Below are positions 4,894-57,840 of a DNA stretch of 64,000 bases, piece after piece. The DNA comes from Chiloscyllium plagiosum. Lineage: Eukaryota. Position 1 is the first letter of the stretch. Each line of letters begins with the position of its first letter. The stretch spans positions 420,367-484,366 of the forward strand of contig NC_057757.1 in the NCBI RefSeq assembly GCF_004010195.1, given 5' to 3'. A program made the position numbers and the translations under genes. The notes under the pieces are model-generated. The model was not told the DNA's origin. It saw only the letters and a program-made list of their open reading frames with translations, and did not search any database.

Positions 4894-6006
4894 GATGTAG
4901 GTTTGCTCGCTGAGCTATTGGTTTGATATCCAGACGTTTCATTACCTGGCTAGGTAACATCATCAGTGGCGACCTCCAAGTGAAGCGAAGCTGTTGTCTC
5001 CTGCTTTCTATTTATATCTTTCTCCTGGATGGGGTTCCTGGGGTTTGCGGTGATGTCATTTCTGTTCGTTTTCTGAGGGGTTGATAGATGGCATCTAGAT
5101 CTATGTGTTTGTTTATGGCGTTGTGGGTGGAGTGCCAGGCCTCTAGGAATTCTCTGGCATGTCTTTGCTTAGCCTGTCCCAGGATAGATGTGTTATCCCA
5201 GTCGAAATGGTGTTTTTTTTCAATGAGCCACCACACACTGCAGCATAGGCGAACTTCGGAAAACAGAGGGGAACCACCTATAGAACGTATTCAAGAAGAA
5301 CGGATACTCAAAAAATACAGTCCGCAGATTCCTCAAGAACAAACCACGACAAGCAGACCAAACATAGCCAGAAACCCTAACCACCTTTCCATACATCAAA
5401 GAAGTTTCAGAAATGACAGCCAGACTACTAAGACCCCTCAGAATCCTAGTAGCACACAAACCCACCAACACTCTCAAACAAAAACTAACAAACTTAAAAG
5501 ACCCAGTACAACCCATGAACAAAACCAACGTCATCTTCAAAGTTCCATGCAAGGACTGCCACAAACACTACGTAGGACAAACAGGAAGAAAGTTAGCCAC
5601 CAGGATACACGAACACCAGCTAGCCACAAAAAGACACGACCCTCTCTCCCTCGTAGCCCTACACACGGATGAAAAAAGACCACCATTTCGACTGGGACAA
5701 CACATCTATCCTGGGACAGGCTAAGCAAAGACATGCCAGAGAATTCCTAGAGGCCTGGCACTCCACCCACAATGCCATAAACACATAGATCTAGATGCCA
5801 TCTATCAACCCCTCAGAAAACGAACAGAAATGACATCACCGCGAACCCCATCCAGGAGAAAGATATAAATAGATAGCAGGAGACAACAGCTTCGCTTCAC
5901 TTGGAGGTCGCCACTGATGATGTTACCTAGCCAGGTCTGGATATCAAACCTACAGCTCAGCGAGCAAACCTACACCCTAAACCTCAACCTGAGCTACAAA
6001 TCTTGC
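4894..6006 (+). mobile_element. Penelope-like element: inverted pLTR + 3' GIY-YIG endonuclease region + pLTR
   Basis: NVIFKVPCKDCHKHYVGQTGRKLATRIHEH (GIY-YIG); about 4897-5220 is the reverse complement of about 5670-5973; 14-bp TSD ATTATATATTTTGG at 4880-4893 and 6007-6020. Confidence 0.92.
4930..4969 (-). ncRNA. Minimal type-I hammerhead ribozyme motif in Penelope pLTR
   Basis: Minus strand reads cca-CUGAUGA-u-GUUACCU(agcc)AGGUAAU-GAAA-CG-UC-ugg. Confidence 0.65.
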
Positions 6007-8639
6007 ATTATATATTTTGGTCCTAGATTCTTCCAATACATCTGGTTCATTAATGTCCTTTAGGGAAGGAAAATGCTATCCTTCCCTGATCTAGCCTACA
6101 TGTGGCTCCAGACTCTCAGCAATGTGGTGAACTAAGGTCACCTCTCATTCTTCTAAACTCTAATGAGTACAGGCCAAACCTACTCAACCTCGCCTCATAA
6201 AATATTCCCTCCATACGCAGGATCAGCCTAATGAGCCTTCTCTGGATACGTCCAGTACAGTTATGTAATTCCTTAGATAAGGGAATTAAACTGGTTTCAG
6301 TATTTCAGTTGAGGTCTGACTCATGCTTTGTATAGTTATAGGGAGACCTCTCTTAGTTTTATATTCAATTCCTTTTAAACTAAAGGCTAGTGTTCTATTT
6401 GGCGTTCCTACTATTTTCTGAACTTGGATATTAGATTAGATTTTTTTTTTTAAATGTGCATGGGCTCCCAAATCCCTCTATGCTGTAGATTTCTGCAGTC
6501 TTTCTCCATTTCTATAATATTGAGCTCCTGTATTCTTCCTGCCAAAGTGCATAATATCACATTTTCCCACATTACATGCCATGTGCCAAGTTTTTGTCGA
6601 CCAACTTAACCTGTCTATATCCCTCTGCAGACACTTGGTGTCATTCTCACCACTTGCTTCCTACCTATTTTTGTGACTTTTGCAAACTTGTCAACAGTTC
6701 ATTAATATACCTCATCCAGGTAATTAATATAAATCATAAATAATAGAATATGAAAGAGCAAAAAAGGGTCTGTTGCAATAGGTTTTGCCTAGAGGTAATA
6801 AAGGCAAGAATATAGAGTGCAGATGACAGGAATTAAGACAACATGAATTGTTCAATAGTATTTTCTGTATCAGAGTAGGCCAGCAGTGAATAATTATTCC
6901 AGGTGAAACAGTAAACCAAAGTCCTATTTCTTACCTCCAGTTGATGGAAAGGAATGGCAGGACAGCTCATCCCAGTGGCCTCTATCATTCAACCAACATT
7001 GTTTTACTTTTCGGAGACCTTGTTTTACATACATAGACTGCCTTTGTTTTTATTCACTTGTGGGACGTGGGTGTGACTAGTTGGGCCAGCATTTGTTGCC
7101 CATCCCTAGGTGTCACTGAGAAGATGGTAGTGAACAGCTGCCTTGAAACCCTGTGTAGTCCATGTGCTATAGGTTTCCTGATGTTACAACGGTTCTTGTA
7201 TTGCAAAACTATTTCATTGTTCGGAAAGTGCTTTGGGATGTTTTGAGGTGGTGAAAGGGGCTGTAGAAATGGAAGTCTTTTCTGTCTTCAGCTTCTAAAC
7301 TCACTGTCTTATGTTCTGCACCAGCTGTCAGATAAAACCTGATTTGCCATGTGAAGACACCTCATTGGAAATGGACCCTTTATCTCCTTTCCAACCACCA
7401 TCTCTGAGCCAGATTGTCCGCAGCACTTCCTCCCACACTTAACCAGTTTACCCTGTGGTTGACAACTTGCTGAGTGGAAATTTTTTTTTAAGATAATACA
7501 GCTTTGAGCTACTTTTAAAAACCATTCTTTTTATTTCAAAGTGCTTTTTCTGCTTGAACTTTCCGTCAGTGGAAACAACATGTGAACCCACGATAATGTC
7601 CAAGACTGAGGAAAAATGTGCAGAATGGTTCCAGGATGAAGAACTTTAGTTCATGTGGAGAGACTGAAAAGCTGGATTGTTCTCCTCCATAGAGCAGAGA
7701 AGGTCAATGAAAGGTTTAATTGAGTTATTTGGATTACTGAGAGATTTTGATAGCAGTAAGGGGAAGCTATTTCCACAGTCAGTGAATGTTGAGTGGATTG
7801 GACCGAGAAGATCAAGTGAAATGGGGGCACAGCTACATACATCAGAAGAGTAGGGCAAAGATTAGCTTAATTAAGAGAATTGCCCACAGAACTTTCTGGT
7901 TAATGGGAAGGTTCAGTTAGACAGGCTACCTGGTAAATGGAGCTGTTAGTTACTACATTAGATAAACTGAGGTTCTACATTCGAACATACACATTAGGAG
8001 TAGGAGAGGGCCATTTGGCCCTTTGAGACTGTTCAATAAGAGCAAGTATAATCTGGTTGTAGCCTCATCTCTTCATTCCTGTCTAACCCTGATAACCTTT
8101 AACTCTTTTGTTAATCAAGATTCTATCTATCCTTTTCTTAACAATAACTAGAAAATAAAACAAATAGCTCTTCTATAAGTAAATTGTTAAAGTCCACAAT
8201 AGGATTAAGAGCGCTTAGTCTGTGGAGAAAATGAGTTCATTCTTATTCCCAGTTTATATTCTAAAATATCCGTGGACATTGTTATATTAACACTGAGCAG
8301 AAGCCTGAAAAGTAGTGATGTGAATGCTGTAGAACCATATCCTGTTTGTCACTAGTTAGAAAATGTTTTTGCTTTTTGTCAGTGTTCAGTTGCGAGAAAC
8401 ATTGTTTGTGAGAATAGAATGCGCGCAAGTCTCAATCCGTGTGCCTGGCTTGAGATCAGCATATATCTGGGATGTCCTCAGAGGCCCTAACTGGAAAACC
8501 CTGCATACTGTGCGTAAGTAAGTTAGGGAGACCTTGTGTATGCAGATCTGATCAGTCACCCTCCCAAAATGGGGACAGTGAGGGGTGAATATCTGGAAAC
8601 AGATTAGTGTCAACCTCTTTTCAGCATTGAGCCACCAGA

Positions 8640-9371: not shown

Positions 9372-10308
9372 GTTGGTGCTATCATTTGTGTCCACAGAAC
9401 TATCTTGTGCAGACGAAACCATCATCTCTGCCTTTGTCCCCTTCAAACTCAATATTCTAGTGCTCCCTCTGGCCAGCCTTCCTTCCTTCAGTCAGATCAT
9501 GGCTGACGTTTATCTTAACATTTAAATTCAGCCAATAAATCTGGAATCGAAAGCTAGTCTTAGTGATGGTGACTAGTGACTAGAATATCTGTCATTGATT
9601 GTCCTAAAAACCCTCTGGTTCACTAATGTCAAGGAAGGAAATCTGTCCAAATCTATTTTGGCCTACATGTGACTCCAGACCCAGAGCAATATGGTTGACT
9701 CTTAACTATCCTCTGAAATAAATCAGAAGTCAGGTGACGAAGGACCAGCAGTCAGAAAGCTTGCAATTTCAAATAACCCTGTTGGTCTGTAACCTGGTAT
9801 TGTGTGACTTCTGACTTTGTCCATGCCAGTCCAACACTGGTACTTCCACATCATCCTCTGAAATGGCTGAGCAAGCCACTCAATTCAAGGGCAATTAGGA
9901 ATGGGCAACAAATTCTGGTACAGCCAATGACATACTCATATCCTGAAAAAATAAAGTACCATCAAAAATCTACCAATCTCATTTAAATTTTCTAGCTTTT
10001 TTTATTGGAGGTGGTTTCAGATTTCTACTCCCCCTTTGATTAAGAAATGCTTCCTGACATCACACCTGAATGGACCTGCCTCCAAGTTTAAATTTCTGCT
10101 CCCTTGTTCTGGACCCTTCAATACTGGAACTAATGGTTTCTGTCTATCAATCTGATCAAATCCATTAATCATTTAGATATTACATTTAGATCATCCTTTA
10201 ATCTTTTAACACCAAAGCAAATACAGACCTGAATAAGTAAAGTTATCGTATTCAGTATGAAATGACTGTACATATATTACGTTAATAAACAAGGATTTGT
10301 ATTTCTAG

Positions 10309-10732: not shown

Positions 10733-11062
10733 TGGCATAGTGGTAATGTAACTGGACTAGTAATCCAGAGGCCTAGACTAATGCCCTGGGGACTTGGGTT
10801 CACATCCCACCAAAGCAGCTGGAGAATTTAAATTCAGTCAGTAGTTCTGGAGTTGAATGTCGATCACAGTCGTGGTGACCGTGACAACTATCATCAATGG
10901 TTGTAAAACCCCATCTGTGTCATTTAGAGAGGATATCCGCTGATCTTACCCAGTCTGACCTACATGTGACGCCATACCCAGAGAAATATGGTTTGCTCTT
11001 AACTACCATAAGATCAGGGATATACAACTATTGTTTGAGTCAGCAACCTTGATAGCCCATGA
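10733..11062 (+). mobile_element. tRNA-derived SINE downstream of the ACADVL stop; related copies at about 9520-9950, 16950-17250(-), 20930-21280(-), 28875-29170, 31440-31730, 62040-62380(-)
   Basis: Head tggcatagtggtaatg with B-box-like gggttcacatccc; shared body motif cctacatgtgactccagac in all copies. Confidence 0.7.
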
Positions 11063-17442: not shown

Positions 17443-18186
17443 AAAGTTTGTGAGAAGATTTGTAGCTCGGGTGCTCATTGTTTTGGTTCTGTTCGCCGAG
17501 CTGGGAATTTGTGTTGCAGACGTTTCGTCCCCTGTCTAGGTGACATCCTCAGTGCTTGGGAGCCTCCCGTGAAGCGCTTCTGTGATGTTTCCTCCGGCAT
17601 TTGTAGTGGTTTGTCCCTCCGCTTCCGGTTGTCAGTTCCAGCTGTCCGTTGCAGTGGTCGGTATATTGGGTCCAGGTCGATGTGCTTATTGATTGAATCT
17701 GTGGATGAGTGCCATGCCTCCAGGAATTCCCTGGCTGTTCTCTGTTTGACTTGTCCTATAATAGTAGTGTTGTCCCAGTCAAATTCATGTTNNNNNNNNN
17801 NNNNNNNNNNNNNNNNNTGGTGAGTTGTTGTCTGAGAGTGGCTGTTGGTTTGTGTGCTGTTATGAGTCCTCGTGGTCACAGTAGTCTGGCTGTCAGTTCG
17901 GAAAGGCTCTTGATGTATGGTAGTGTGGCTAGTCCTTTGGGTTGCGGCATGTCTTTCCCTTAGGCATCTGTTGATGAAATTGCGCGGGTATCCGTTTTTG
18001 GCGAATACATTGTATAGGTGCTCTTCCTCTTTTTGCAGTTCTGGTCTACTGCAGGGTGTTGTGGCCCTTTTGAATAGTGTCTTGATGCAACTTCTTTTGT
18101 GTGTGTTGGGGTGGTTGCTTTCTTAGTTCAGGACTTGGTCTGTGTGTGTGGCTTTCCTGTATACACTTGTGGTGAATTCTCCGTTC
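17443..18186 (-). mobile_element. Penelope-like element fragment with pLTR
   Basis: HEFDWDNTTIIGQVKQRTAREFLEAWHS, the GIY-YIG C-terminus; pLTR homologous to 20280-20430. Confidence 0.85.
17516..17555 (-). ncRNA. Minimal hammerhead ribozyme motif in Penelope pLTR
   Basis: gca-CUGAGGA-u-GUCACCU(agac)AGGGGAC-GAAA-CG-UC-ugc on minus strand. Confidence 0.6.
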
Positions 18187-19692
18187 GGCGTTCCACGCTC
18201 TTACCATTCTCTGCGTAAAGAACCTGTCTCTGACATCTGTCTTAAAGCTATCACCCCTCAATTTGTAGTTATGCCACCTCGTACAAGCTGACGTCATCAT
18301 CCGAGGAAAAAGACTTTCACTGTCTATTCTATCTAATCCTCTGATCATCTTGTATGTCTCTATCAAATCTCCTCTTAGACTTGTTCTTTCCAATGAGAAC
18401 AGACCCAAGTCTCTCAGCCTTTCCTCAGAAGAGCTTCCCTCCAGACTAGGCAACATCCTGGTAAATCTCCTCTGCACCTTTTCCAATGCTTCCACATCAT
18501 TCCTGTAATGGGGCGACCAGAACTGTACACAATATTCCAAGTGTGGCCGCACTAGCATTTTGTATTGTTGTAGCATGGAACTCAATCCCTCTACCTATGA
18601 TACCTAACACAACGTATGCCTTCCTAACAGCACTATCCACCTGGGTGGCAGCTTTCAAGGATCTATGTACATGGACTCCAAGATCCCTCTGCACATCCAC
18701 ACTACCAAGAATCGATCCATTGACCCAGTACTCTGCCTTCCTGTTATTCTTCCCAAAGTGCATCACCTCACATTTAGCNNNNNNNNNNNNNNNNNNNNNN
18801 NNNNNNNNNNNNNNNNNNNNNNNNNNNNNNNNNNNNNNNNNNNNNNNNNNNNNNNNNNNNNNNNNNNNNNNNNNNNNNNNNNNNNNNNNNNNNNNNNNNN
18901 NNNNNNNNNNNNNNNNNNNNNNNNNNNNNNNNNNNNNNNNNNNNNNNNNNNNNNNNNNNNNNNNNNNNNNNNNNNNNNNNNNNNNNNNNNNNNNNNNNNN
19001 NNNNNNNNNNNNNNNNNNNNNNNNNNNNNNNNNNNNNNNNNNNNNNNNNNNNNNNNNNNNNNNNNNNNNNNNNNNNNNNNNNNNNNNNNNNNNNNNNNNN
19101 NNNNNNNNNNNNNNNNNNNNNNNNNNNNNNNNNNNNNNNNNNNNNNNNNNNNNNNNNNNNNNNNNNNNNNNNNNNNNNNNNNNNNNNNNNNNNNNNNNNN
19201 NNNNNNNNNNNNNNNNNNNNNNNNNNNNNNNNNNNNNNNNNNNNNNNNNNNNNNNNNNNNNNNNNNNNNNNNNNNNNNNNNNNNNNNNNNNNNNNNNNNN
19301 NNNNNNNNNNNNNNNNNNNNNNNNNNNNNNNNNNNNNNNNNNNNNNNNNNNNNNNNNNNNNNNNNNNNNNNNNNNNNNNNNNNNNNNNNNNNNNNNNNNN
19401 NNNNNNNNNNNNNNNNNNNNNNNCCACTTCTGTCTTTGACTGGCCCTATTCCTACCCTAATCATCCTTTTATTCCTCACATGCCTATAGAAAGCTTTAGG
19501 GTTCTCCTTTATTCTATTTGCTAAAGACTGCTCATGTGCTCTCTTTGCTCTTCTTAACTCTCTCTTTAAATCCTTCCTAGCTAATCTGTAACTCTCCATC
19601 ACCTCATCTGAACCATCTTGCCTCATCAACACATACGCCTCCTTCTTCTTTGTAACAAGAGATGCAATTTCTGTTGTAAACCACAGTTCCTT

Positions 19693-20432
19693 CGTCCTGT
19701 GAGTTGTTGTCTGAGAGTGGCTGTTGGTTTGTGTGCTGTTATGAGTCCTAGTGGTCGCAGTAGTCTGGCTGTCAGTTCAGAAATGTTTTTGATGTATGGT
19801 AGTGTGGCTAGTGCTTTAGGTTGTGGCATGTCCTCATTCCGTTGTCTTAATGAAATTGCAGGGGTATCCGTTTTTGGTGAATACATTGTATAGGTGTTCT
19901 TCTTCCTCTTTTTGCAGTTCTGGTGTACTAAAGACAACGGAATGATACCCAGCATGAGCAAAACCAATGTTGTGTACAAAATCCCATGCAAGGACTGCAC
20001 AAAACACTACATAGGACAAACAGGAAGACAGCTAATAGTCCGCATCCATGAACACCAACTAGTCAACAAAACGACATGACCAGCTATCCTTAGTAGCCAC
20101 ACACTCAGATGACAAGCAACACGAGTTCGACTGGGACAACAGTACTATTATAGGACAAGCCAAACAGAGAACAGCCAGGGAATTCCTAGAGGCATGGCAC
20201 TCATCCACAGATTCAATCAATAAGCACATCGACCTGGACCCAATATACTGGCCACTGCAACGGACAGCTGGAACTGACAACCGGAAGCGGCAGATACAAA
20301 TCACTATAAATGCTGGAGGAAATGTCACAGAAGTGCTTCGCAGGAGGCTCCCAAGCACTGAGGATGTCACCTAGACAGGGGACGAAACGTCTGCAACACA
20401 AATCCTCAGCTCGTCGAACAGAACCACAGCAA
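19693..20432 (+). mobile_element. Penelope-like element with internal inversion (about 19693-19925 minus, 19926-20432 plus)
   Basis: NVVYKIPCKDCTKHYIGQTGRQLIVRIHEH on +; ATLPYIKNISELTARLLRPLG on -. Confidence 0.85.
20355..20394 (+). ncRNA. Minimal hammerhead ribozyme motif in Penelope pLTR
   Basis: gca-CTGAGGA-t-GTCACCT(agac)AGGGGAC-GAAA-CG-TC-tgc. Confidence 0.6.
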
Positions 20433-22111
20433 CCATTCAGCCCATTGAGTCTGCTGTACTATTCAATGAGATCATGGCTGATCTGGTATCTTCAACTCCA
20501 CTTTCTTGGCTTTTCCCCCATAAACCCTGAATTTCTTACTGATTAAAAATCTATCTCAGTCTTGAATTTACTTAATGTCTCGACTTCAACAGCCCTCTAT
20601 GGGAAAGAATTTACAATCCTCTGACAGAAGAAATTCCTCCTCATTTGTGTCTTAATTGTGTGTCCCCTTTTCCTGAGATTATGCCCTTTGGTCCTAGTCT
20701 CACCCACAAGATGAAACAACCCTTCTGTATTTATTGTGTCGAATGCCTTAAGAATCTTCCATGTTTCAATAAAGTCACCTCTCACTCTCCTAGTACAGGT
20801 CACACCGACTCAATCTCTTCTCATAAGATAGTCTCTCCATACCTGGTAGCTGTCTGGGGAACCTTCAGTTGTCTGCCGCCAATGCCAGTATACCTTTCCA
20901 AGATAAAGGGCCAAAGATTTTTTTTAAATGTATTCATGTGATGTGATATCAATGGCTAGGCTGGTGTTTATTGTCTATCCCTCGTTATCCAGAGGGTAAT
21001 TAAGAGTCAACCACATTGCTGTGAGTCTGGAGTCACTTGTAGGCCAGACCAGATAAGATCAGCAGTTTCCTTCCTTAAAGAAATTAGTAAACCAGATGGA
21101 TTGTTACTAACAATTGTTTAATGGTCATTATTAGCATCTTAATTCCAGTTTTTTTAAAAATGTAATCAAATTCAAATCTCAGCATAAACCATGGTGAGAT
21201 TCAAACCCAGGTCCCCAAAGCAAGACCTGCGTCTCTTGATGAATAATCTAGCAATAATACCACTGGGCCATCGCCTCCCCTGTTCAGTGTTCCACTTGTG
21301 GTCTAAGTAGATACCTACTTTTATACTTCATTTCCTTTGAAATAAAGATCAATGTTCCTCAACCAAGTCACCCCTCAGCTTACTCCATGCCATGATTTTG
21401 TTGAATAACAGGATAGGTTTGAGGGGCCAAACAGCCTACTTCTGCTCCTATTTCTTACATTGTTAAAAGATGGCCTTTCAACTCTGCAAAACTCACTCAG
21501 CATTGCACAGAGAGTGTCAGCTCAGATTGTAGGATTTGAGTATCTGGAGTAGTGCTGAAATCTGCAACCTTCCAACTCTGGCACGTAAATGCAAATTGGT
21601 AGCCATTTTTACTAAATTACAGCTGTGATCACATTGTGATTATTTGGCTGCAAATTTCTTTGGGAAGTTGCTATTGAAGTGAAAACCTTAATTATTTCAG
21701 AATCATTCTTTGTTTAGATAAGTTAACAATACTGTGAATGGGAATAGGTTTTAGTTCTTGGGATGTGACAGACTGGGTACTCCAGAATTAGTCAGCACAT
21801 TTAGGGGTGTATAGCAGAGATTGCTTACAAACCCTTTGAAGTTACTTGTAAGCTGTTTTATCACGTGTATGCTTGATAAAATGTGGAGCTGGAAAAAGCA
21901 CAACAGGCCAAGCAGCGTCAGAGGAGCAGGAGAGTCAACATTTTGGGATACCTTAAATAAAAAGAGGTTGTAATTGTAACTACCTCTGTCATTGGAAAGT
22001 GCGACTGCCCACTCTGATAAATTGTAGGTCCAATGAGTACCAGAGTAAGATGCAAATGCTCACAGGCCCTGTTTATTTCCAGGATCACTGATTGCCTGAT
22101 TCAACCATGGG

Positions 22112-22420
22112 GTAAAAACAATGACTGCAGATGCTGGAAACCAGAGTCTAGATTAGAATGGTGCTGGAAAAGCACAGCAGTTCAGGCAGCATCCAAGGAG
22201 CAGTAAGGATGCCTGCCTTGAAGAAGTTCTCCTCTCTCTACAAGAATCTCAGGGAGTCCCTCTCCCACTGCAACTCCCAGGTCATTTCCTCTGCCCTGAA
22301 GCTCTTCAACCATGTCCTGAAACAAACTCGCATCTTCTGCCTCGGAACACTTCAATCCCAGGACATCAATGTGGACTTCAACAGTTTCCTCATTTCCCCT
22401 TACCCCACCTCACCCCATTG
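22112..22420 (+). mobile_element. Penelope-like (different family) pLTR plus ORF tail fragment
   Basis: ctgcagatgctgg...cagcagttcaggcagcatcc head shared with the 131-bp element; peptide IFCLGTLQSQDINVDFNSF resembles PLE GIY-YIG C-termini. Confidence 0.6.
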
Positions 22421-23444
22421 ATTGAACCATTTGCCCAAACATCTATCTATGTATACCACCTTAATTTCTTCTTTTGCTTAACTTGCATCATGACTTTAAA
22501 TGTTAAAATGTAGATCAAAGAGATCATATCTAGAGTGCAAATGAGGCACTGAAAGATATGGCATTGATTATGATCTGAGATTTTGAAACCACATTCAAAT
22601 CTCGTTCTGGCCTTAGTTTATTTCGGATATAGCTGACTCCTGATTATCTTGTATATGGCTAAAACTGTATAGTTCAGGGGAAGAGCTCAGGAAATAATTG
22701 GACTGGGGAACACATTATTGTTACATTTGCATCATAAGTTCCTATGTTAGCATGTATAATGGGATTTATTCTACTTAAACATATCATGTTGTAATTCCTT
22801 CCTTTGTCTATGGTAATGGCATAGCTTCCAAAATAAATATGGTTCCATCTCTGTAACATCTCCTCTTTCCAATCATACCTCAGCCGATGTGCTGCTAAAA
22901 CTCTCCAGACTCAAACATTCTAATCTTCTCCTGATTAATTCCCATATTCTATAGTCCAAACATTTACTCCCAAAACACTTTGACTCTGTATTCTACTTCT
23001 CACCAAGTCTTAACTCTTGGTGCTGGTTGAACTACATTGACTCCTGCAGTGATAATGCCTCAATTTTTAAAATTCTTATCCTTGAGTTCAAATTCCTAAA
23101 TGGCCCGGCCCTATCCCTCCCTATCTTTGAACTCATGACCTGCCAACTCACAGCTGAGAATGCACTGTGGAACATGTTAAACTGGGGTCCTGTTTGGATT
23201 ATAGGAGTAGACAGAGTAGATTTACCAGGATTTTGCCTGAGCTGGACAGGGGGAATAAACTTAAGGTAAGGGGCGGGCGGGGGGGTTGGGGGCGGTGCGA
23301 ATGTTTAGAGGAGATGTGAAGGAAAACATTTTCACTGAGGGAATCTGAAACTCACTGCCTGTAAGGATAGTAGAGGCAGAAACCCTTATAACATTGAAGA
23401 AGTATTTAGATGTACTCTTATAATGCCAAGGCAAACAACACTAT

Positions 23445-23575
23445 CATTCCTGAAGAAGGGCCTGTGCCCGAAACGTCGAATCTCCTGTTCCCTGGATGCT
23501 GCCTGACCTGCTGTGCTGTTCCAGCAATAAAGTTTCAACTTTGATCTCCAGCATCTGCAGACCTCACTTTCTCCT
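23445..23575 (+). mobile_element. 131-bp non-autonomous Penelope-derived mini-element carrying a hammerhead motif; other copies at 37798-37884, 38978-39105, 46181-46360, 59810-59927
   Basis: Perfect 13-bp TSD CAAACAACACTAT at 23432-23444 and 23576-23588; interrupts a CR1 3' fragment; closely similar copies elsewhere in the window. Confidence 0.85.
23446..23481 (+). ncRNA. Minimal type-I hammerhead ribozyme motif
   Basis: ATTC-CTGAAGA-a-GGGC(ctgt)GCCC-GAAA-CG-TC-GAAT: 4-bp stem I, conserved core, 4-bp stem II, GUC cleavage triplet. Confidence 0.7.
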
Positions 23576-25436: not shown

Positions 25437-25925
25437 CCTCAGCCCTGACACTCCCAACAGTGCCCTCTCCCTCAGCACTGACTCTCTGACAGTGCAGTGC
25501 TCCGTCAGCACTGATCCTTCGACAGTGCAGTGTTCCCTCAGCGCTGACCTTCCAACAGGGCGGCACTCCCTCAGCATTGGCCATCCGACAGTGCAGTACT
25601 CCCTCAGCACTGATCCTCCGATAATGTGGCATTCCCTCAGCACTGACACTCCGATAGTGCCCACTTCCGACAGTGAGGCACACCTTTAGCACTGACTCTC
25701 TGACAGCATGGCTGACCTTCAGCTCTGACTCTCTGACAGTACCCGCTTCCTCAGCACAGATCCTCCGACAGTGTGGCTCATCCTCAGCACTGATCATCCG
25801 GTGATGCGACACACCCTCAGCACTAACCCTCTGACAGTGGGGCACATACTCAGCAGTGACTCTCTAACAGTGGGGCACACTCTCAGCACTGACTCTCCGC
25901 TAGTGCAGCAGTCCTTCAATACCAA
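25437..25925. repeat. 33-bp minisatellite, about 15 degenerate units
   Basis: Unit consensus ctccctcagcactgaccctccgacagtgcagca; gives 11-aa periodic ORFs on both strands. Confidence 0.9.
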
Positions 25926-25926
25926 C

Positions 25927-39337: not shown

Positions 39338-39515
39338 GAGGGATATGGGCCAAATGCTGGCAAATGGACTAGATTAATTTAGAAATCTGGTCGTCATGGA
39401 CAATTGGACAGAAGGGGTCTGTTTCTGTGATGTACATCTCTATGACTATGATTATGACTCAATATAGGTAGTGAGCGGGAAAGTGGAGTTGAATCACAAA
39501 GAAGACCTGAGAGCC
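37885..39515. repeat. 408-bp inverted repeat (37885-38292 vs 39108-39515)
   Basis: The arms read as exact reverse complements by eye. Confidence 0.92.
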
Positions 39516-44249: not shown

Positions 44250-45535
44250 CTTGAATTTCTATAGCAACTTTCACCATCTTAAGGCATTTGAAAGTACTCT
44301 ACAGACAATTAAATATCCTTTAAATGTTATTATGTTTTGTATTCATTCATGGGATCTAGGCGGCATTGGGCTGGGCACATATTTGTTTTCCATCCAAAGT
44401 CATCCTTAGGACAGTGATAGTGAGCTGCCTTCTTGTAATTGTTGAAGAGTAGGAAATGTGGCAAGCAAATTGCACACAGTGAGCTTCCAAAAAACAACAA
44501 TGTGACAATAGTGCCATTACACCTTTATTCCCTATCTGAAACTCAAATGGATTTAAAACCTAATGATAATGATATCAGCACAGACCCTCTGATAGTGCTG
44601 CAATCCCTCATTACTGAACCTCTGAGAGTGCAGCTCTCCCTCAGCACTGACCCTCTAACAACGTCCACTCCCTCAGCACTGACCCTCTGACAGTATGGTG
44701 CTCCCTCCGTAATGACTCTCTGGCAGTGCGGCGCTCCCTCAGTACTGAATCTCTGACAGTGCAGTGCTCCGTCAGTATCGATTATCCAACAAAGCAGCAC
44801 TCCCTCGGTACTAATCCTTAAACTGTGTGCTGTCTCTCTCAGTTCTGGCCGTCTGATAGTGCTTGGGCTGGAGAATTTCACTTACAAAGAGAGATTGGAC
44901 AGACTGGGGTTGTTTTTCTGAGAGCAGAGTAGATTTAAAGTGGACATGATTGAAATGTATAAAATTGTAAGGACATAGATAGGGTAGACAGGAAGAAACC
45001 TTTCCTCTTGATGAAAAATTCAATAACCAGGGTCATAAATTGAACAGAAGGGCAGAAGGTTCAGAGGAGACATGAGGAAAAACTCTTTCACCCATAAGGC
45101 AGTGGGAATCTGGACCCTATAGCCCGTAAAAGTCGTAGAGACAGAAATTCTCATAACATTTAAGAAGTGTTTAGATGTACACTAGCAATGCCAAAGCATA
45201 CAAGGTTATTGACCAAGTGCTGGAAAATGTGACGAGATCAGTAAGGTTGTTTTTGACCGGCACGGATGCAATGGGTCCAGGGGCCTTTCACTGTGTTGTA
45301 GAATTCTGACTCTATGAGTCTTTCAGTAATGACCATCCGACAGTGCAGTACTCCCTCAAAACTGACCCTCCAACATTGTAACATTCCCTCAAGAAAAGAC
45401 TCTCCAATAGTGCAGCTGTCCCTCAGTAGTGACCCTCCAACAGTGTAGTCCTTCCTCAGTACTGACCCACAGCAGTTCAGCATTCCATCTGTGCTGTAGC
45501 TAGGATTATTGGCCCAGATTATGGATTAAATCTCT
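44250..45535 (-). mobile_element. DeuSINE-like element with internal 33-bp array (44575-44860, 45320-45490) interrupted by a CR1 fragment (44862-45315)
   Basis: Tail-like sequence at about 44255-44310; array units on both sides of the CR1; head-side cccagattatg at about 45515. Confidence 0.65.
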
Positions 45536-45721: not shown

Positions 45722-45862
45722 CATGATTTGGAAATGCCGGTGTTGGACTGGGGTGTACAAAGTTAAAAATCACACAACAACAGGTTATAGTCCAATAAAT
45801 TTAATTGGAAGCATAAGCTTTCGGAGCGCTGCTCCTTCATCAGGTGGTTGTGGAGAATAAGT
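45722..45862 (-). mobile_element. Short Penelope-type repeat (third family) with hammerhead-like core at 45812-45846; related pieces at about 9725-9853, 12765-12830, 52672-52727, 57740-57840
   Basis: Minus strand: cac-CTGATGA-a-GGAGC(agc)GCTCC-GAAA-GC-TTA; shared ggtgttggactggggtgtacaaagttaaaaatc segment. Confidence 0.6.
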
Positions 45863-46669
45863 GTGAAACTCCTCTCTGATTCCTATTCTGAGAATACTTG
45901 TAGGGAGATTGAAATGGGTTGGCATTAGGTTGTATTTTCCACATTGGAATGACTTTACTAACACAATAGATGGAAGGATGAGGTTATAGAGTTTACAGAA
46001 TAATCCTGTTTTATTAACAGAGGCAATGAATACTAAGAGAAGAAAATTACATTAAAACTTCAACCAACATTAACTCAGTCCCAAGAACTTAAACATGGAA
46101 ACATTGTCAATGTATGACTTTGAAGGAGGCATTTCAGCCTATCATGACCATGTCGGCAAAGCTGGAGCCTTGTATACAATGGGGAGAAAGTGAGGTCTGC
46201 AGATGCTGGAGATCAGAGCTGAAAATGTGTTGCTGGAAAAGCGCAGCAGGTCAGGCAGCATCCAGGGAACAGGAGAATCGACGTTTCGGGCATTCCTGAA
46301 GATTCTCCTGTTCCCTGGATGCTGCCTGACCTGCTGCGCTTTTCCAGCAACACATTTTCTACTGTGAAGAGAATGCAATTCTGTATCTTCTGCATCCACC
46401 CACGAGCCCCCCCAAAAAATAGATTTCCATTACTTAATGTTGGCAGTTGCCTTGGCTTCAAGCTCTTGTTTTCCATCTCCGTCCAATTGTCTGTACTAGG
46501 ACACTCCTAAAAGATAACCCCTTTGATAAAGCTAATGATCAGTCGTGCTAATATTTCATTTGATCAATGGCAAACATTGTCTGATAATAGCTGCTGTTGA
46601 GCACCTTGGGACATTTCATTATGTGAAAGGCTCTTTATAAATCCATAATGGAAAATGAATACACAGACC

Positions 46670-48127
46670 TGCATTTCTCTAGCGTCTTTCACAACCTCAG
46701 GACATCTAAAAGTGCTTTACAGTTTAGTCACTGCAGTAATGAAGGAAACACATTTGTCAATTGGTCTCAGCAAGATCCCACAAACTGAACACTGAGAAAA
46801 CCCAAGAACTGCCCTTCTGTTCTCCTAAATGGTGACCGAAGAATCTTTCATAACCACCTGAGAGGCCAGTCAGAGCATGACTCAACCAAAATATGTCACC
46901 AACATTAGAGTGGTACTCCCTCAGGATTGACTCTCTGAAAGTGCATCACTCCCTCAGCACTGACTCTCCGACAGTGCAGTGCTCCCTCAGCACTGACTTT
47001 CCAACTGTGCGGTGCTCCCTCAGCACTGACCCTCGACAGTGCTGAGCTCACGCAATCCTGACCCTCCGATAGTGCTGTGCACCCTTAACCCTGACCCTCC
47101 GACAGTGCATCACTCCCTCAACCCTGACCATCCGACAGTACGGTACTCCGTCAGCACTGACTGCCTGACAGTGCAGTGCTCCCTCAGCATTGACCTTCCA
47201 ATTGTGCGGCGCTCCCTCAGCACTGACCCTTGACAGTGCATCACTCCCTCAACCCTGACCCTCCGACAATACGGTGCTCCCTCAGCACTGACTGTCTGAC
47301 AGTGCAGTGCTCCCTCAGCACTGACACTCTGAAGGTGCATCACTCCCTCAGCACTGACTCTCTGACAGTGCAGTGCTCCCTCAGCATTGACCTTCCAACT
47401 GTGCGGCGCTCCCTCAGCACTGACCCTCCGACAGTGCTGTGCTCTCTCAACTCTTACCCTCTGACAGTGCATCACTCCCTCAGCACTGTCCTTCCAACTG
47501 TGCAGCGCTCCCTCAGCACTGTCCCTGCAACAGTGCTGTGCTCCCTGAACACAGATGCTCCAACAGAGTGGCACTCTCTCAGCGCTGACCCTCCAACAGT
47601 TCAGTGCTCCCACAGCACTAACCCTCTGACAGTGTGGCACCCCCTGAGCACTGATCCTCTAACAGTGCAGTACTCCCCCAGGACTGAACCTCTGATGATA
47701 CCGTGCTTCCTCAGTACTGACCCTCCCACAGTGCAGCATTCCCTCAGTAATGACCCTCCCAGTGTGGCACTCCTTCAGTACTAACCCTCTGACAATGAGG
47801 CATGCCCTGAGCACTGACCCTCTGACAGTGCAGCACTCCCCTAGGACTGAACCTCCAATGATGCAGTGCTCCTTCAGTACTAACCCTCCAACAGTGCAGT
47901 ATTCCCCCAGTAATGACCCTCCCACATACCTAAAAATGGGCACTCCTTCAGTACTCACTCTCTGACAATGTGGCGTTCCCTCAGTACTGACCCTACGATA
48001 GTACAGCAATTTCTTAGTACTGCACTGAGTGTCAGCTGTGACCCTTGTGCTTAAGTCTCTGGAGTTGGACACCAAAGCCGCAATCTTCTGACTCAGTGAT
48101 GAGTTGGCTACCTACTGAGCCATGGCT
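46670..48127 (-). mobile_element. SacSINE1-like DeuSINE with about 1.1 kb internal tandem expansion
   Basis: tRNA-like head at 48016-48127, Deu-domain-like core at 46805-46910, L2-type tail at 46670-46725. Confidence 0.7.
46912..48020. repeat. 33-bp minisatellite, roughly 33 units
   Basis: Repeated ctccctcagcactgac(c/t)(c/t)t(c/t)(c/t)gacagtgc; periodic SLSTDPPTVQC ORFs. Confidence 0.95.
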
Positions 48128-49695: not shown

Positions 49696-50721
49696 CTACT
49701 CGATGCATTTTCCTGTGGTCTCCTCACTCACCAGAGTTAGCACCTCAGGACAAGTCTGGACTGAAGCTGGAGAGCTCGATTTTGTGGGCAGGAGCAGAGT
49801 CGTCCGCACCAACTCCAGAGTCCCCTTGAAGTCCCAAAGGAAGCATGGGAACTTGTGCGAAGTGAGTTCCCACAACTCCTCTTTGCGCAGGCCATAGATA
49901 ACAGGGCTGATGCACTGTGCCAGGCTGAAGAAGGCAAAGTTCAGTACCTCAAAAAGAGTCTTGGTGCTCTGATCAAGCTTCCTGGCATGAGCCACTTGTT
50001 GCAAAATGAAGTTGATGAATGTTGGGATTATGTAGACTGCCAGCTGCACCCCATGCATTAAGATGGTGCTCCGTGCCCTCTTATTGCGCCGGTTCAGCAC
50101 ACCAATACGCTTACCTTCCACCAGAATTTTGTAGTAGCTGAAGAGAATAAGGACTGTACAGATACAGATCAGCAGGATTTTAGAAGTGTGTTTCATGCTG
50201 TAGCTGGAATGAAAGTTGGAGATTGAGCAGCTCGTGAACATTTGGCTGGGTTCTTTCCTCATATGCTGGGAGACCAGGATGAGAGGGATGACAGCTGAGA
50301 CCACCCAGGTCATGCTGCTAAGAATCCAGATTTTACATGGGGTGCAGAAGGAGCTGTACTTGAGCGGGTGACAGATGGCGAAGTATCGGTCAACCGCCAT
50401 CACGGTCAGGGTCAGGAGGATGGTAGAACCGCTCATCATCAGGAACATCAGGAGGATCAGGCAACACGAGGCTGACATGGCCACCTCCAGGTAAATGAGG
50501 AGATAGAAAGTGCTGCTCAGACCAAAGTAGATCAGACCGGATACCAAAAGATGGAACAGCAAAACAAACCTAGCTTGAGATCGCAGACGGTCCTCACTCA
50601 GAATGGTGTAATCAATTACGAGATTGAAGAAAGCCAGCAGAACAAAGGAGGTGACAGAAGCAAAGACCCTGATTTTGATCAGGTGCTCCCCGTTGATAGT
50701 GCTGTTCCCCGATTCATTCAT
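49696..50721 (-). CDS. Single-exon odorant-receptor-like class A GPCR (type 2 / 'OR131-2-like'), 341 aa from first ATG
   Basis: Uninterrupted ORF (the track start at 50739 is GTG; first ATG is 50721, MNESGNST with two N-glycosylation sequons). Seven hydrophobic stretches; MAVDRYFAICHPLKY (TM3), FSYYKI (TM5), KRARSTILMH (TM6), SPVIYGLR (TM7). Confidence 0.92.
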   Translation of the reverse strand: MNESGNSTINGEHLIKIRVFASVTSFVLLAFFNLVIDYTILSEDRLRSQARFVLLFHLLVSGLIYFGLSSTFYLLIYLEVAMSASCCLILLMFLMMSGSTILLTLTVMAVDRYFAICHPLKYSSFCTPCKIWILSSMTWVVSAVIPLILVSQHMRKEPSQMFTSCSISNFHSSYSMKHTSKILLICICTVLILFSYYKILVEGKRIGVLNRRNKRARSTILMHGVQLAVYIIPTFINFILQQVAHARKLDQSTKTLFEVLNFAFFSLAQCISPVIYGLRKEELWELTSHKFPCFLWDFKGTLELVRTTLLLPTKSSSPASVQTCPEVLTLVSEETTGKCIE

Positions 50722-50849
50722 TCTCAGACGCTTAAACACATTCGAGTGTCCGACATAACAGTGTTGTGTCTCAGATCAGAGCTGTCTCGAAACTAAACAA
50801 GCCTCTCCTTCCCCTGCTGGCTGCCTGGTACTCTTGCATTCTCTTACAG

Positions 50850-52727: not shown

Positions 52728-55700
52728 TGGTTGGTTAGTTGAATAAGATGATAGAGAAGTACTAACAATTGTTTAACTCATAAATTTGTATAAATTAATT
52801 AAATAAGTAGAGATGGCGAGAGATAGCTGAATTATGTGGGAGCTGGCTGATCCCATTGGGAACGGCAGTGACCACATCTGCAGCAAATGTTGGTTGCTGG
52901 AAGAACTCCAGATCAGAATTGATGATCCAGAATCTGAGCTTCAAACACTGCAGCACATCCGGGAGGGGGAGAGTTACCTGGACGCTTTGTTTCAGGAGGC
53001 AGTCACACCCGGCAGATTAAGTAATTCAAATTCAGTCAATCACGAACAACAGGGTTTGACTGTAAGTGAGGCAGGTAGGGGGATTCTGAGGTCAGGAGTG
53101 GAGGAGCCTCAGCCCTCGACCTTGTCCAGCAGGTATGAGATTCTTGCTCCCTGTATGGATGAGGAAAAGGGCTGTGGACAGGATGAGCCAGCTGACCAAG
53201 GCACCATGGTGCAGAAGGCCATTCAAGAGGGGGGAGCAAAAAGACAAGTAGTTGTTATAGGGGATTCTATAATTAGGGGGACAGATAGTATCCTTTGTGA
53301 GCCAGATCGGGAGTCCTGCATGGTGTGTTGCCTGCCTGCTGCCAGGGTGCAGGACATCTCTGAACGGCTTGAAAGGATATTGTAGCAGGAAGGGGAGGAT
53401 GCAGGTGTTGTGGTCCACGTTGGCACAACAACATAGGCAAGGCTAGGAAGGAGGACCTGTTTGAGGATTATCAAGCACGAGGAAGGAAATCGAAGAACAG
53501 GTCCTCAAAGGTCATAATCTCTGGATTACTGCCCGAGCCATGTGCTAATTGGCATAGGGATAAGAAAATTAGGGAAGTAAACATTTGGCTAAGAGATTGG
53601 TGTGGGAAAGGGGGCTTCCATTTTATGGGACATTGGCATCAGTTTTGGAACCAGGGTGATCTGTACTGATGGGATGGTCTCCACCTGAACCAATCTGCAT
53701 CCAGTGTTCTGGCGAAAAGGATAAATAGGGTGGTCACTAGGACTTTAAACTTACGAGTCGGGGCGGGGGGAGGGAAAGGGAAAGTAACAGGGAGCATGGA
53801 ATCAAATAGAAAGATATAATTCTGGTCAAACTTGAAGGGGTTCAGAAAAGATTTACAAGGATGTTGCCAGGGTTGGACAATTTGAGCTATGGGGAAAGGC
53901 TGAACAGGCTAGGGCTGTTTTCCCTGGAGTGTCGGAGCCTGAGGGGTGACTTTATTGAGGCTTACAAAATTATAAGGGGCATGGATAGGTTAAATAGACA
54001 AGGTCTTTTCCCTGGGATGGGGGAGTCCAGAACTAGAGGGCATAGGTTTAGGGTGAGAGGGGAAAGATATAAAAGGGACCTAAGGGGCAACTTTTTCACG
54101 CAGAGGGTGGTACGTTTATGGAATGAGCTGCCAGAGGAAGTGGTGGAGGCTGGTACAATTGCAACATTTACAAGGTATTTGGGTATATGAATAGGAAGGG
54201 TTTGGAGGGATATGGGCAGGGTGCTGGCAGGTGGGACTAGATTGGGTAGGGATATCTTGTCGGCATGGACGGGTTGGACTGAAGGGTCTGTTTCCATGTT
54301 ATACATGACTCTATAAGCAGCAGGTTAGCATCTGTGCAGGGTTTAAGTTCAAGACAGACTAGGAAATGAAGCAAAAAGGAAGGATAACTTAGGTAGAGGT
54401 GATGGAAATCATGAGGATAAGAAAACTAGAATTAAGCTGATTTCCCTGAATGCTCGAAGCATTCGAAACAAAGTAGATGAATTAACAGCACAAATCATCG
54501 TAAATGATTATGATGAGGTAGGCATCACAGAAACGTGCTTGCAGGGGGTTCAGGACTGGCATTTAAACATCCAACTGATTTACAAGTGATCAAAAAGACA
54601 GGGAGGCAGGCAGAGAGGAGGTTGCCCCGTTAGTTAGGAATGAAATTAAATCTATGGCATTAAATGATATAGGGTCAGATGATGTGGAGTCTGTTTGGGT
54701 GGAGTTGAGGAACCACAAAGGCAAAAAATGAGAGTTACGTACAGACCTCCCAGCAGTGGTCAGGACCAGAGGCGCAAGATGTACCAGGAAATAGATAGGG
54801 CATGTCAGAAAGGTAAGGTCACGATGATCATGGGGGACTTCAATATGCAAATGGACTGGGTGAATTATGTTGCCGGTGGATCCAAAGAAAGGGAATTCAT
54901 GGAATGCTTACAGGATGCATTTTTGGAACAGCTTTTGATGGAGCCCACAAGGGAGCAGGCTATCCTGGACTTAGTACTTTGTAACGAGCCAGACTTTATA
55001 AAAGATCTTAAAGTCAGGGAACACTTAGGAGGCATCGATTATGATATGTTGGAATTTAGTCTGCAGTTCGAGAGCGAGAAGGCAAAATCAGATGTAATGG
55101 TGTTACAGTTAATAAAGATAACTACAAGGGCTTGAGAGAGGAATTGACGAAAATTGAGTGGAAGCAGAGCCTAGTGCTGAAGACAGTAGAGCAACAATGG
55201 CAGGAGTTTCTGGGTGTAATTGAGGACACAGTACAGAGCTACATCCCAAAGAAAAGAAAGATTATCCAGGGGGGGATTAGACAACCATGGCTGATGAAGG
55301 AACTCAGGAAACGTATCACAGAAAAAGAGAGAGCCTATAAAGTGGTCAAGAGCACTGGGAAATCAGAAGATTGGGAAGACTACAAAAACAAACAAAGGAT
55401 TACAAAGAGAGAAATAAGGAGGGAGAGGATCAAATATGAAGGTAAGCTAGCCAGTAATATTAGTAATGATAGTAAAAGTTTATTTCAATACATAAAAAAC
55501 AAACAAGAGGTAAAAGTAGAGATTGAGCCACTCCAATTTAATGCAGGAAGGCTAGTGATGGGAGAAAAGGAAATAGCTGAAGAACTTAATAAATACTTTG
55601 TATCAGTCTTCACAGTGGAAGACGTGAGTAATATCCCAACAATTAAGGAGAATCAAGGGGCAGAGTCGAGTATGGTGGCCATTACAAAGGAAAAAGAACT

Positions 55701-57290
55701 TGATAAGTTAAAAGATCTATGAACTGATAAATTTCCTGGCTCGGATGGGCTACATCCTAGAGTTCTGAGGGAGGTGGCTGAGGAAATAGAGGAGGCATTG
55801 GTTGTGATCTTTCAAAAATCACTGGAGTCAAGGAAAGTCCCAGATGATTGGAAAATTGCTGTTGTAACCCTCTTGTTCAAGAAAGGATCAAGACAAAAGA
55901 TACAAAATTATAGGTCGATTAGCCTAACCTTGGTTATAGGTAAAATTCTAGAATCCATCGTGAAGGATGAGATTTCTAAATTCTTGAAAGTACAGGGTCA
56001 AATTAAAACAAGTCAGTATGGATTTAGTAAGGGGTGGTCGTGTCTGACAAACCTGTTAGAATTCTTTGAAGGGGTAACAAGTAGGTTAGACAGGGAAACC
56101 CAGTGGATGTTATCTACCTAGACTTCCAAAAGGCCTTAGATAATGTGCCTCACGGAAGGCTGCTAAGTAAGGTGAGGGCCCATGGTGTTGGAGGTGAGCT
56201 ATTGGCATGGATTGAGGATTGGCTGTCTGACAGAAGGCAGAGAGTTGTGATAAAAGGTTCTTTTTCGGAATAGCAGCTGGTGATAAGTGGTGTCCTGCAG
56301 GATCAGTATTGGGGCCCCAGCTGTTCAATTTATATATAAATGATCTGGACGAAGAGACTGGGGGCATTCTGGCAAAGTTCGCCAATGATACAAGGTTAGG
56401 TGGACATGCAGGTAGCTCTCAGGAGGCGGGGAGGCTGCAGAAAGATTTAGACAGTTCAGGAGAATGGTCCAAGAAATGGCTGATGAAATGCAATGTGAGC
56501 ATTACAAGATCTTTGGAAAAAAGAACTCAGGCAAGGACTATTTTATAAATGGTGAGAAAATTCATCAAGCCAAAGTACAAAGGGATAAGGGAGTGCTTGT
56601 CCAGAATTCTCTAAAGGTTGACTTGCAGTCCATGGTTAAGAAAGCAAATGTAATGTTGTCATTTATTTTAAGAGGGTTGGAATGTAAAAACAGTAAGGTG
56701 CTACTAAAACTTTATAAAGCTCTGGTTAGGCCCTGCTTAGAATACTGTGTCCAGTTTTGGGCCCCTATCACCTCAGGAAGGACATACTGGCACTGGAACA
56801 TGTCCAGCAGAGATTCACACGGATGATCCCTGGAAAGGTAGGCCTAACATATGATGAACGGTTGAGGATCCTGGGATTGTATTCATTAGAGTTCAGGGTT
56901 GAGGGGCAACCTAATAGAAACTTACAAGGTAATGCATGGCTTAGAAAGGGTGGATGCTGGGAAACTGTTTCCGTCAGGTGGGGATACTAGGACTCGTGGG
57001 CACAGCCTTAGACTTAGAGGGGGTCAATTTAGGACGGAAATGAGGAGACATTTCTTCAGCCAGAGAGTGATGGGCATGTGAAATTCACTGCCACAGAGTG
57101 CAGTGGAGGCTAGGATGTTAAATGTCTTCAAGGCAGAGATTGATAAATTCTTAATCTCGCAAGGAATTAAGGGATACAGGGAGAGTGTGAGTAAGTGGCA
57201 TTGAAATGCCCATCAGCCATGATTGAATGGTGGAATGGACTCAATGGCTGAATGGCCTTACTTCCACTCCTATTTCTTTTGTTCTTATGT
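52728..57290 (+). mobile_element. Near full-length decayed CR1 LINE: ORF1 (Zn finger, coiled coil, SGNH esterase) and ORF2 (APE + RT), with a nested CR1 3' fragment at about 53820-54312
   Basis: HICSKC...VVVIGDSIIRG...VCCLPAARV (ORF1); LNARSIRNK, VGITET, IMGDFN, ILDLVL, NYRSISLT, LEYCVQFWAP (ORF2); several stops and frameshifts. Confidence 0.92.
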
Positions 57291-57840
57291 TTACACTCAC
57301 ACTCAAACACATACACACACTCTCTCAGAGACACTCATAATACACACCCCCACTGCACACTCAGATGCGCACACGCGCGTGCACACACACACACACAAGT
57401 TTGTGGAGTGAATTTGTACTTGCAGAATTAAATTTTACTTTGCTCAAAAACTGCATGAATCCATGTAAGATTCTGTAAATCCATTTTTAAAATCAGTCTG
57501 ACCATTGTGGCACAGACAGCTCAGGCAGGAAGCTCACACCTTCAATACATTATCTGAACCGACATGACACCAATTTTAAAGTTCACTTGAGAATGTAACG
57601 TTTAAAAAAAGCTTTGTGATTTACATATGAAAGAACTGAAACCAACATGGTCATTCTAAAAGATGAGAGACTTAATGAACAATCCAAGTCTTTTTCAATA
57701 TATAATTTTAGTTTGCTATAAATTTTGAGTCGTACAATCTTATTCTCCACAACCACCTGATGAAGGAACACCGCTCCAAAAGCTAGTGCTTCCAAATGAA
57801 CCCTTTTGGACTATAACCTGGTGTTGTGTGATCTTTAACT
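57291..57840 (+). mobile_element. Penelope-type repeat with CA-rich tract and degenerate hammerhead core at 57754-57788
   Basis: cac-CTGATGA-a-ggaacaccgctcc-AAAA-GC-TA-gtg (GAAA mutated); homologous to 45722-45862. Confidence 0.55.

Follow-up and report, generated by a model that had tools for sequence, protein, structure and literature searches.

The 64,000-nt stretch of Chiloscyllium plagiosum DNA analyzed here (contig NC_057757.1, positions 420,367 to 484,366 of the forward strand; hereafter, the window) carries small motifs resembling hammerhead ribozymes (HHRs) beside remnants of Penelope-like elements (PLEs). It raises the question of whether these motifs are functional parts of the elements and, if so, what they do. 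A preliminary description, prepared from the sequence alone, listed eight motifs in three unrelated families and one degenerate case, and regarded them as functional ribozymes of the ancestral elements. We conclude with good confidence that the motifs are minimal type I hammerheads in the pseudo-long terminal repeats (pLTRs) of at least four PLE families, that they likely go back to a common ancestor, and that their cleavage of RNA is predicted to require dimers, probably with the participation of the element's protein.

Hammerhead motifs in the window and the genome

Re-reading of the sequence located all eight motifs as described: family A at 4930–4969 (−), 17516–17555 (−), and 20355–20394 (+), family B at 23446–23481 and 37849–37883 (−), family C at 45812–45846 (−) and 57754–57788, and the supposedly degenerate case at 24393–24422 (−). 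A strict descriptor for type I hammerheads, requiring the core, a perfect stem II of at least 4 bp, self-complementary 15.2–16.2, and UH, matched five times in the window, whereas 200 dinucleotide shuffles gave a mean of 0.015 and a maximum of 1. When stem II mismatches were permitted, seven of the eight sites were recovered. The core C3-U-G-A-N-G-A9 ... G12-A-A-A, U16.1, H17, in type I order, was present in seven of the eight sites and in the commonest variants of all families. The catalytic core at 57754–57788 is broken because G12 has changed to A, and its stem II is mismatched. At 45812–45846, the first pair of stem I (2.1–1.1) is gone, and H17 is followed by ATG versus GTG in most family C copies. 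The site at 24393–24422 turned out not to be especially degenerate: its core is complete, stem II has 5 bp and stem I has 4 bp, and it belongs to a further family, D. Family A consists of two subfamilies, A1 and A2, which share 66% identity over 295 nt. Additional copies, broken or truncated, had been missed, e.g., at 5911–5945, 9735–9854, 38978–39094, 46180–46367, and 59810–59927. An Rfam scan of the window returned no hammerhead family match up to E=5 and seven weak unrelated matches.

The motif is widespread in the 3.56-Gb genome. A random sample, consisting of eighty 10-kb stretches placed at round coordinates on large contigs (765,617 bases called), contained 65 motifs with the core and stem II, 41 that also had the palindrome, and 36 that also had at least 2 bp of stem I; the totals extrapolated to the genome are approximately 3.0, 1.9, and 1.7 × 10^5, respectively. 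The first 40 stretches held 38 descriptor matches versus 0–3 in shuffles, and one 40-mer of the young B subfamily has 8,383 exact copies in the genome. Using a different descriptor, approximately 4,000 HHRs were reported in the coelacanth and 9,000 in Xenopus (PMC4209133). Up to 120,000 are given for the axolotl, in which the families listed in PMC7229834 are canonical HHRs.

All motifs had been described as having one extra nucleotide after A9 and a self-complementary 2-nt stem III. The former holds for 37 of the 38 matches in the random sample. The latter applies to 20 of the 38, but not to the other 18, 11 of which have CA or TG at 15.2–16.2; these are products of CpG decay. We also examined 13 variants, hand-picked from the commonest forms and anchored on the core. 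The palindrome was CG or GC in 11 of them and CA, through CpG decay, in the remaining two. Loop 3 was absent, corresponding to a dimer-type helix III, and the G10.1–11.1 pair was G-C in nine variants and G-U in four.

Identity and kinship of the families

The families are Penelope-type, as had been proposed. Reverse transcriptase (RT) and/or GIY-YIG endonuclease sequence lies upstream of the motif in A, B, C, and D, and the motif of each family is on the same strand, downstream of the GIY-YIG end. With an endonuclease fragment as a genome query, an HHR or tail was found downstream on the same strand at 25 of the 30 loci examined for B and 24 of the 30 for C. Upstream of the family A motif are a GIY-YIG domain and then an RT (Pfam RVT_1, E=8.7e-8), while family C has an RT with QxxGxxMG and YIDD motifs upstream of the endonuclease (RVT_1, E=1.1e-4). 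In broken copies of both families, the RT and endonuclease are collinear, in the manner of one open reading frame (ORF) bearing a C-terminal GIY-YIG domain. In B, an RT piece (in L088, across a gap of N) and the endonuclease each lie upstream of a B HHR, but at different loci. In D, the endonuclease alone was found, and the tail resembles that of B. Apparent ORFs of 480–566 aa were rejected as assembly gaps of N, and a PDB sequence search with the family C RT gave no match.

RT identity is 30% over 251 aa between A and C and 37% over 90 aa between B and C, and the endonuclease ends of B and D are 57% identical over 30 aa. Because of this homology, the term "unrelated" is true at the DNA level only, at which there is little identity outside the core; the families are distinct but homologous PLEs. 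From these comparisons, the shared motif is best read as inherited from a common ancestor rather than invented separately, and it is the published minimal HHR of PLEs (PMC4209133). A C-X4-C-X2-C linker between the RT and endonuclease is present in B (L126) and C (L170) and absent from A. According to the clade descriptions in PMC8557442, a CX2-5CxxC linker occurs in Neptune and not in the Penelope/Poseidon clade. By linker comparison, A is classed as Penelope/Poseidon-type and B and C as Neptune-type; D resembles B.

Position of the hammerhead within the element

In near-full A and C copies, the motif is also found at the 5′ end, where it either coincides with the start of the RT reading frame or shortly precedes it. 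No continuation past the tail was common to independent loci among 162 B, 82 C, and 11 A long-ended copies; it was found instead by walking upstream from the RT at 30 loci each for A and C. This walk identified sense-strand 5′ HHR copies upstream of the RT in L330 and, truncated, in L335 (both A) and in L364 and L371 (C). A pLTR, i.e., the same HHR-bearing sequence before and after the ORF, was seen in A and C, and in B only in an internally deleted derivative.

The relationship between the motif and the start codon varies among the families. In L330, the frame leading into the RT, which crosses two stops, opens at C3+6, where A9-U-G10.1 reads ATG, and the cut site lies 28 nt past this ATG. 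The extra nucleotide of family A is the U of the likely start codon. Start-codon overlap accounts for the extra nucleotide in A only, since B, C, and D carry A at this position. The first ATG of family C is at cut+92, where the long 3′ ends of copies fall, and that of family B is probably at cut+134, judging from the deleted derivative and a remnant at window position 22200.

Conservation of the fold and the core

The proposal that the structure was kept while the sequence changed is supported by compensatory changes in helices I and II between families. In the 13 variants, scored at nine stem positions, 103 of 117 stem cells were paired, and most positions showed at least three kinds of pair. 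When each of five lineages was represented by a single copy, 41 of 45 cells were paired versus 24.6 in shuffles, none of which (0 of 20,000) was as high. An unedited MAFFT alignment, in which three C rows are displaced by one column, gave a covariation score of 0.514 versus 0.198 (0 of 500), and slid controls gave at most 0.229. In 74 B copies, passed through an alignment filter that somewhat favors intact cores, the non-CpG core was altered at 20 of 592 sites versus 178 of 2,368 in the tail; the C and G of stem III were altered in 26 and 28% of copies, respectively. These patterns argue for selection on the fold in master elements, and not on dispersed copies, which would then have decayed neutrally, including at CpG. 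Free co-folding yielded the expected ACGU/AGCU intermolecular helix only in part and mostly swapped stem II duplexes; we drew no support from it.

Start and end points of the copies

Copies of B and C start preferentially at the front of the hammerhead. Of the 160 B copies in the random sample, 80 begin between C3−8 and C3+10, versus 9 and 9 in the adjoining 19-nt windows, as do 17 of 31 C copies, versus 0 and 1. We also inspected 77 young B copies from 70 loci, which were the first matches on contig C1 among the 8,383 and were found with a pattern that demands reaching −4. Twenty-seven stop at −4, 10 at −5, 7 at −6, and 1 at −7 (45 of 77), while 7 stop at −10 to −28 and 25 further. At position −4, stem I begins with the A of CTCATT, a sequence that fits the initiator consensus. 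The front edge likely marks where the RNA of the element starts, and the stubs beginning there would put the hammerhead first in the transcript. If polymerases merely stalled at the structure, the stops should lie at the 3′ foot of the hairpin rather than at its front edge, and the young B starts have neither an AG acceptor nor a common upstream exon. For the Drosophila element, an internal TATA-less promoter in the pLTR has been described (PMC2377424). A fixed start at TATCA was rejected as a selection effect of the query, and random sampling was used instead.

The 3′ ends fall into two classes approximately 35 nt apart in A, B, and C. An inverted partner was present for 92 of 160 B and 22 of 31 C copies. 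In head-to-head pairs, a long 3′ end is matched with a short one in 41 of 46 B and all 11 C cases (52 of 57; p=3e-11 versus 50:50), while solo B copies have 33 long and 35 short ends. For PAc, the Poseidon element of the anole (Frangieh et al. 2024, PMC11167929), both target strands are reported to be nicked and extended. The one-long-one-short pairs fit the two RT start sites and the nicking and extension of both strands known for PAc, as well as the tail at one end only that is described in PMC8557442.

Traces of cleavage

Only two of the 160 sampled B copies start at the cut site. Most integrated copies probably came from uncut RNA, because the sequence upstream of the cut is retained. Genome-wide patterns that demanded three mismatches just upstream gave 96 matches at the cut, 24 at cut+2, and 21 at cut−2, and 46 of the 96 were preceded by CAG. 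Inspection of 30 cut-site matches showed that 13 of 17 CAG cases were inverted-arm junctions with 4-nt microhomology from stem I; 10 of the 30 were copies of older subfamilies, and 2 were small deletions. The true start is ambiguous at these junctions because stem I complementarity supplies the microhomology. After the 46 CAG cases were dropped, 50 matches at the cut remained versus 24 and 21 (p=8e-5 under equal rates, with target-site microhomology ignored). This excess is a weak hint that approximately 1% of templates may have been cut in vivo. A single-cell polyA run from an organism whose best DNA match shares only half of the sequence words gave 407 and 2,100 reads, among which neither starts nor ends were clustered, and the sister run gave 0; runs of this type cannot show 5′ ends.

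The minimal HHRs of PLEs are described as inactive as monomers and weak as dimers (PMC4209133; PMC6765202). The anole HHR was cut only with protein, and a C3G/G8C double change rescued cleavage, as reported in the PAc experiments of PMC11167929; the RNA-seq data presented there contained no reads starting or ending at the cut.

Proposed mechanism and alternative explanations

In the mechanism that we envision, the two hammerheads of a tandem transcript would pair their ACGU/AGCU palindromes into helix III, and cleavage would be slow or conditional. Uncut RNA would be the main template for integration. The 100–130-nt stubs would be reverse transcripts primed 55–100 nt past the first hammerhead that ran off the 5′ end of the RNA, and priming behind the second hammerhead would give long copies. 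A cut at the first hammerhead would remove the cap and, in A, the start codon; alternatively, together with a second cut, it may free a unit-length RNA for circularization, as proposed in PMC4209133. A fuller form of this mechanism is offered only tentatively, as conceivable rather than probable. The hammerhead may be the first structure of a capped transcript starting at the initiator-like A, and protein-assisted dimer cleavage may be a switch that removes the cap and, in A, also the AUG. One protein dimer may prime each of the two target strands, using a pair of fixed sites on uncut RNA; the more than 100,000 leader stubs and the long-plus-short mirror pairs would be its products, with approximately 1% of copies recording an in vivo cut.

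Several observations weigh against parts of these interpretations. The Pfam matches for B and C are below curated cut-offs, and five of eight fragments had no match. Nematis shares the linker motif, and we set it apart from Neptune by an assumed host range alone. The covariation figures lean towards structure because the sample was selected with a descriptor that requires pairing. A U-U mismatch is present in stem I of the commonest older B variants and in stem II of A2. For the natural 224-nt tandem, constraining the fold to the dimeric form costs 5.7 kcal/mol relative to the free minimum. The 5′ pile-up is smeared over −8 to +10, and it is weak at best in A (3 of 16 starts) and D (17 of 37, with 1 and 11 in the adjoining windows). 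A cap-derived extra G was considered and not established (11 of 27, several of which are templated by the inverted arm). Furthermore, the anole HHR was dispensable for insertion in vitro in the assays of PMC11167929, and Naiad PLEs are reported to thrive without an HHR (PMC8557442).

Some of these points suit the possibility that the fold is real and selected, but serves chiefly to bind protein or as a structure of the promoter or translation start, or is carried along as a passenger, with cleavage in vivo being rare or absent. The scarcity of B copies starting at the cut, the uncut front retained by the stubs, the lack of an effect of HHR mutants on insertion in vitro, and the absence of anole RNA-seq ends at the cut (PMC11167929) all agree with this possibility, and PMC8557442 raised the idea that HHRs are parasites of PLEs. 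However, conservation across lineages extends beyond the stems to the catalytic bases, copies that start at the cut outnumber those at control positions (50 versus 24 and 21), and the anole HHR does cut with protein, with the C3G/G8C rescue (PMC11167929). We regard a fold that rarely or never cuts as rather unlikely.

The other alternatives concern the nature of the elements. B, C, and D may be independent non-autonomous units, resembling short interspersed elements (SINEs) or retrozymes, that start at the hammerhead, have a fixed unit of their own, and are separate from the coding PLEs. Half of the copies indeed measure approximately 100–130 nt from one edge, many have 8–16-bp target duplications, and through its spread, the internally deleted B derivative (HHR spacings of 224 and 320 nt) now occupies approximately 39 loci. 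However, the same sequences continue upstream into GIY-YIG (and, in C, further up into the RT), and their downstream continuation is the start of the ORF; the copies also have ragged ends, and their inversion junctions are not the same from one to the next. The presence of the hammerhead or tail downstream of the endonuclease largely refutes such separate units for the bulk of copies, and we consider them very unlikely. Convergence of three unrelated elements on the same minimal hammerhead appears even more improbable, to the point that we give it almost no credence, although DNA identity among A, B, and C is nearly absent outside the core, and the families differ in the lengths of their stems, in the extra base (U or A), and in the palindrome (CG or GC). 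Convergence is opposed by the homologous RT and endonuclease domains, by the location of the motif at the same place in all families, and by HHRs reported across most canonical PLE clades (PMC4209133, and the clade survey in PMC8557442).

Relation to known systems

The architecture, extra nucleotide, palindrome, and covariation argument were already published for the minimal HHRs of PLEs (Cervera and De la Pena 2014, PMC4209133); the present observation adds a host group and several sequence families. Shared features are type I order without loop 3, a palindromic 15.2–16.2, an extra nucleotide between 9 and 10.1, a G10.1–C11.1 (or G-U) pair, a short helix I, numerous sequence families within each genome, copies that are mostly single and truncated, and opposite-strand pairs 100–700 bp apart. 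In contrast to that study, the shark has approximately 1.7–1.9 × 10^5 copies (extrapolated), and helix II of B is 4 bp, not 7–8 bp. We found no paper dedicated to shark PLE hammerheads; file 1 of PMC4209133 and the supplements of Li et al. 2026 may list sharks. The text and supplementary file 2 of PMC4209133 do not name them, and the preprint of Li et al. (10.64898/2026.07.22.740005) gives one chondrichthyan with retrozymes.

Family A shares with PAc a start codon at stem II of the HHR, and the cut follows 26 nt on in PAc versus 28 nt in A. PAc also has two 3′ ends approximately 35 nt apart (the "tail"), matching two RT start sites, in the account of PMC11167929. In contrast to PAc, B and C have the hammerhead in the 5′ untranslated region (UTR), upstream of the ATG; PAc was tested in vitro, whereas the shark elements are known from their sequence. 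The endonuclease-containing PLEs surveyed by Craig et al. (2021, PMC8557442) share 5′ truncation, partial tandems, an inverted 5′ copy, and a 30–40-bp tail that is often at one end only. In the shark, the one-long-one-short rule is counted, and the 5′ pile-up at the hammerhead front is seen as well.

Metazoan non-long-terminal-repeat retrozymes are similarly PLE-derived short units with tandem type I HHRs, as outlined in Cervera and de la Pena 2020 (PMC7229834) and Li et al. 2026 (10.64898/2026.07.22.740005). In contrast to these, the motifs of the window are single or head-to-head and of the minimal type, with no same-sense tandem arrays or canonical HHRs, and no same-sense tandem units of 150–450 nt were present among the window sites. 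Among 50 cores of the random sample, only 2 pairs lay on the same strand within 4.5 kb; their members were approximately 1.5 kb apart, and at least one pair joined different families. Elsewhere in the genome (L249, L280, and L381–L400), we noted an internally deleted, non-coding derivative of young B with HHRs 224 and 320 nt apart, which has itself spread. Its junction has 40 exact matches at 39 loci, and an identical junction of the ORF start and 3′ UTR was present in at least 6 of the 19 loci inspected. This derivative is retrozyme-like and would offer a natural test substrate for cis-dimer cleavage.

Element copies and other features of the window

The A1 copy is a head-to-head insertion. 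Its left arm (4888–5222, −) comprises the ORF end, the intact HHR at 4930–4969 (3-bp stem I, 7-bp stem II, palindromic A15.1-C-G-U16.1), and a short 3′ end (cut+45). The opposite arm (5368–6005, +) has a GIY-YIG fragment at 5368–5721, a second HHR at approximately 5911–5945 with a deleted 3′ core, and then a longer tail. A repeat of approximately 14 nt at both outer ends may be a target duplication. The A2 arm at 17444–18122 (−) has an intact HHR at 17516–17555 and a long 3′ end (cut+75). The arm at 19699–20433 (+), with a GIY-YIG fragment at approximately 19987, an intact HHR at 20355–20394, and a short 3′ end (cut+42), is probably its partner, later split by a fragment of a long interspersed element (LINE).

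An older B-type remnant at 22110–22420 joins a minus-strand tail to plus-strand sequence of the ORF start and endonuclease end. The young B stub at 23444–23575 (+) starts at C3−6 and has an intact HHR at 23446–23481 with a 4-bp stem I, a long 3′ end (cut+98), and a 13-bp target duplication. Family D forms a head-to-head palindrome at 24314–24507, with an intact HHR at approximately 24390–24426 on the minus strand and a truncated plus-strand partner. Two further young B stubs are at 37790–37883 (−), which starts at C3−3 and has an intact core at 37849–37883 and a short 3′ end (approximately cut+57 to 63), and at 38978–39094 (−), which starts inside stem II, lacks the 5′ core, and has a long 3′ end. 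Within 37790–39515, these two stubs flank a fragment whose translation we take to resemble the C-terminus of an L1-type ORF2, and the region contains a perfect 408-nt inverted duplication (37885–38292 and 39108–39515). It possibly reflects PLE-mediated capture or rearrangement.

The family C stub at 45723–45855 (−) contains the HHR at 45812–45846, with an intact core and the first stem I pair lost, and has a long 3′ end (cut+94, at the first ATG of the ORF). An older B head-to-head pair at 46180–46367 consists of a long and a short arm with both HHRs broken. At its junction (46293–46310), the first 9 nt of the presumed transcript start are joined directly to cut-site sequence; a 2-nt microhomology makes this junction ambiguous. 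The family C copy at 57442–57840 (+) retains the 3′ UTR, the broken HHR at 57754–57788 (G12 to A), and a short 3′ end (cut+56). An older B stub at 59810–59927 (−) starts inside the core (C3+5) and has a long 3′ end, and an old family C stub at 9735–9854 (+) has a degenerate HHR and a long 3′ end.

The window also contains an intronless 359-aa ORF at 49696–50775 (−) for a seven-transmembrane receptor that is olfactory-receptor-like (Pfam 7tm_1, E=1.4e-23; 7tm_4, E=5.8e-8). A 33-nt minisatellite family forms dispersed arrays, 60–80% identical, at 25357–25966, 44575–45487, and 46883–48022. A weak tRNA-like head at 10733–10810 (+; Rfam E=2.3) is probably that of a tRNA-derived SINE. Many LINE RT fragments, which we take to be CR1/L2-like, are present (2756–4077, 18046–19776, 26649–28520, 54683–56826, and 59035–60448), and the pair at 18187–19629 and 26676–28433 is inverted and 95–97% identical.

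Significance

The young B subfamily provides a large fossil record of the start and end points of templates. If the front-edge pile-up marks the start of transcription, the hammerhead would be placed to decap the element's own mRNA. Moreover, the long-plus-short rule offers genomic support for the two-site, two-strand priming that was seen in vitro for the anole element.

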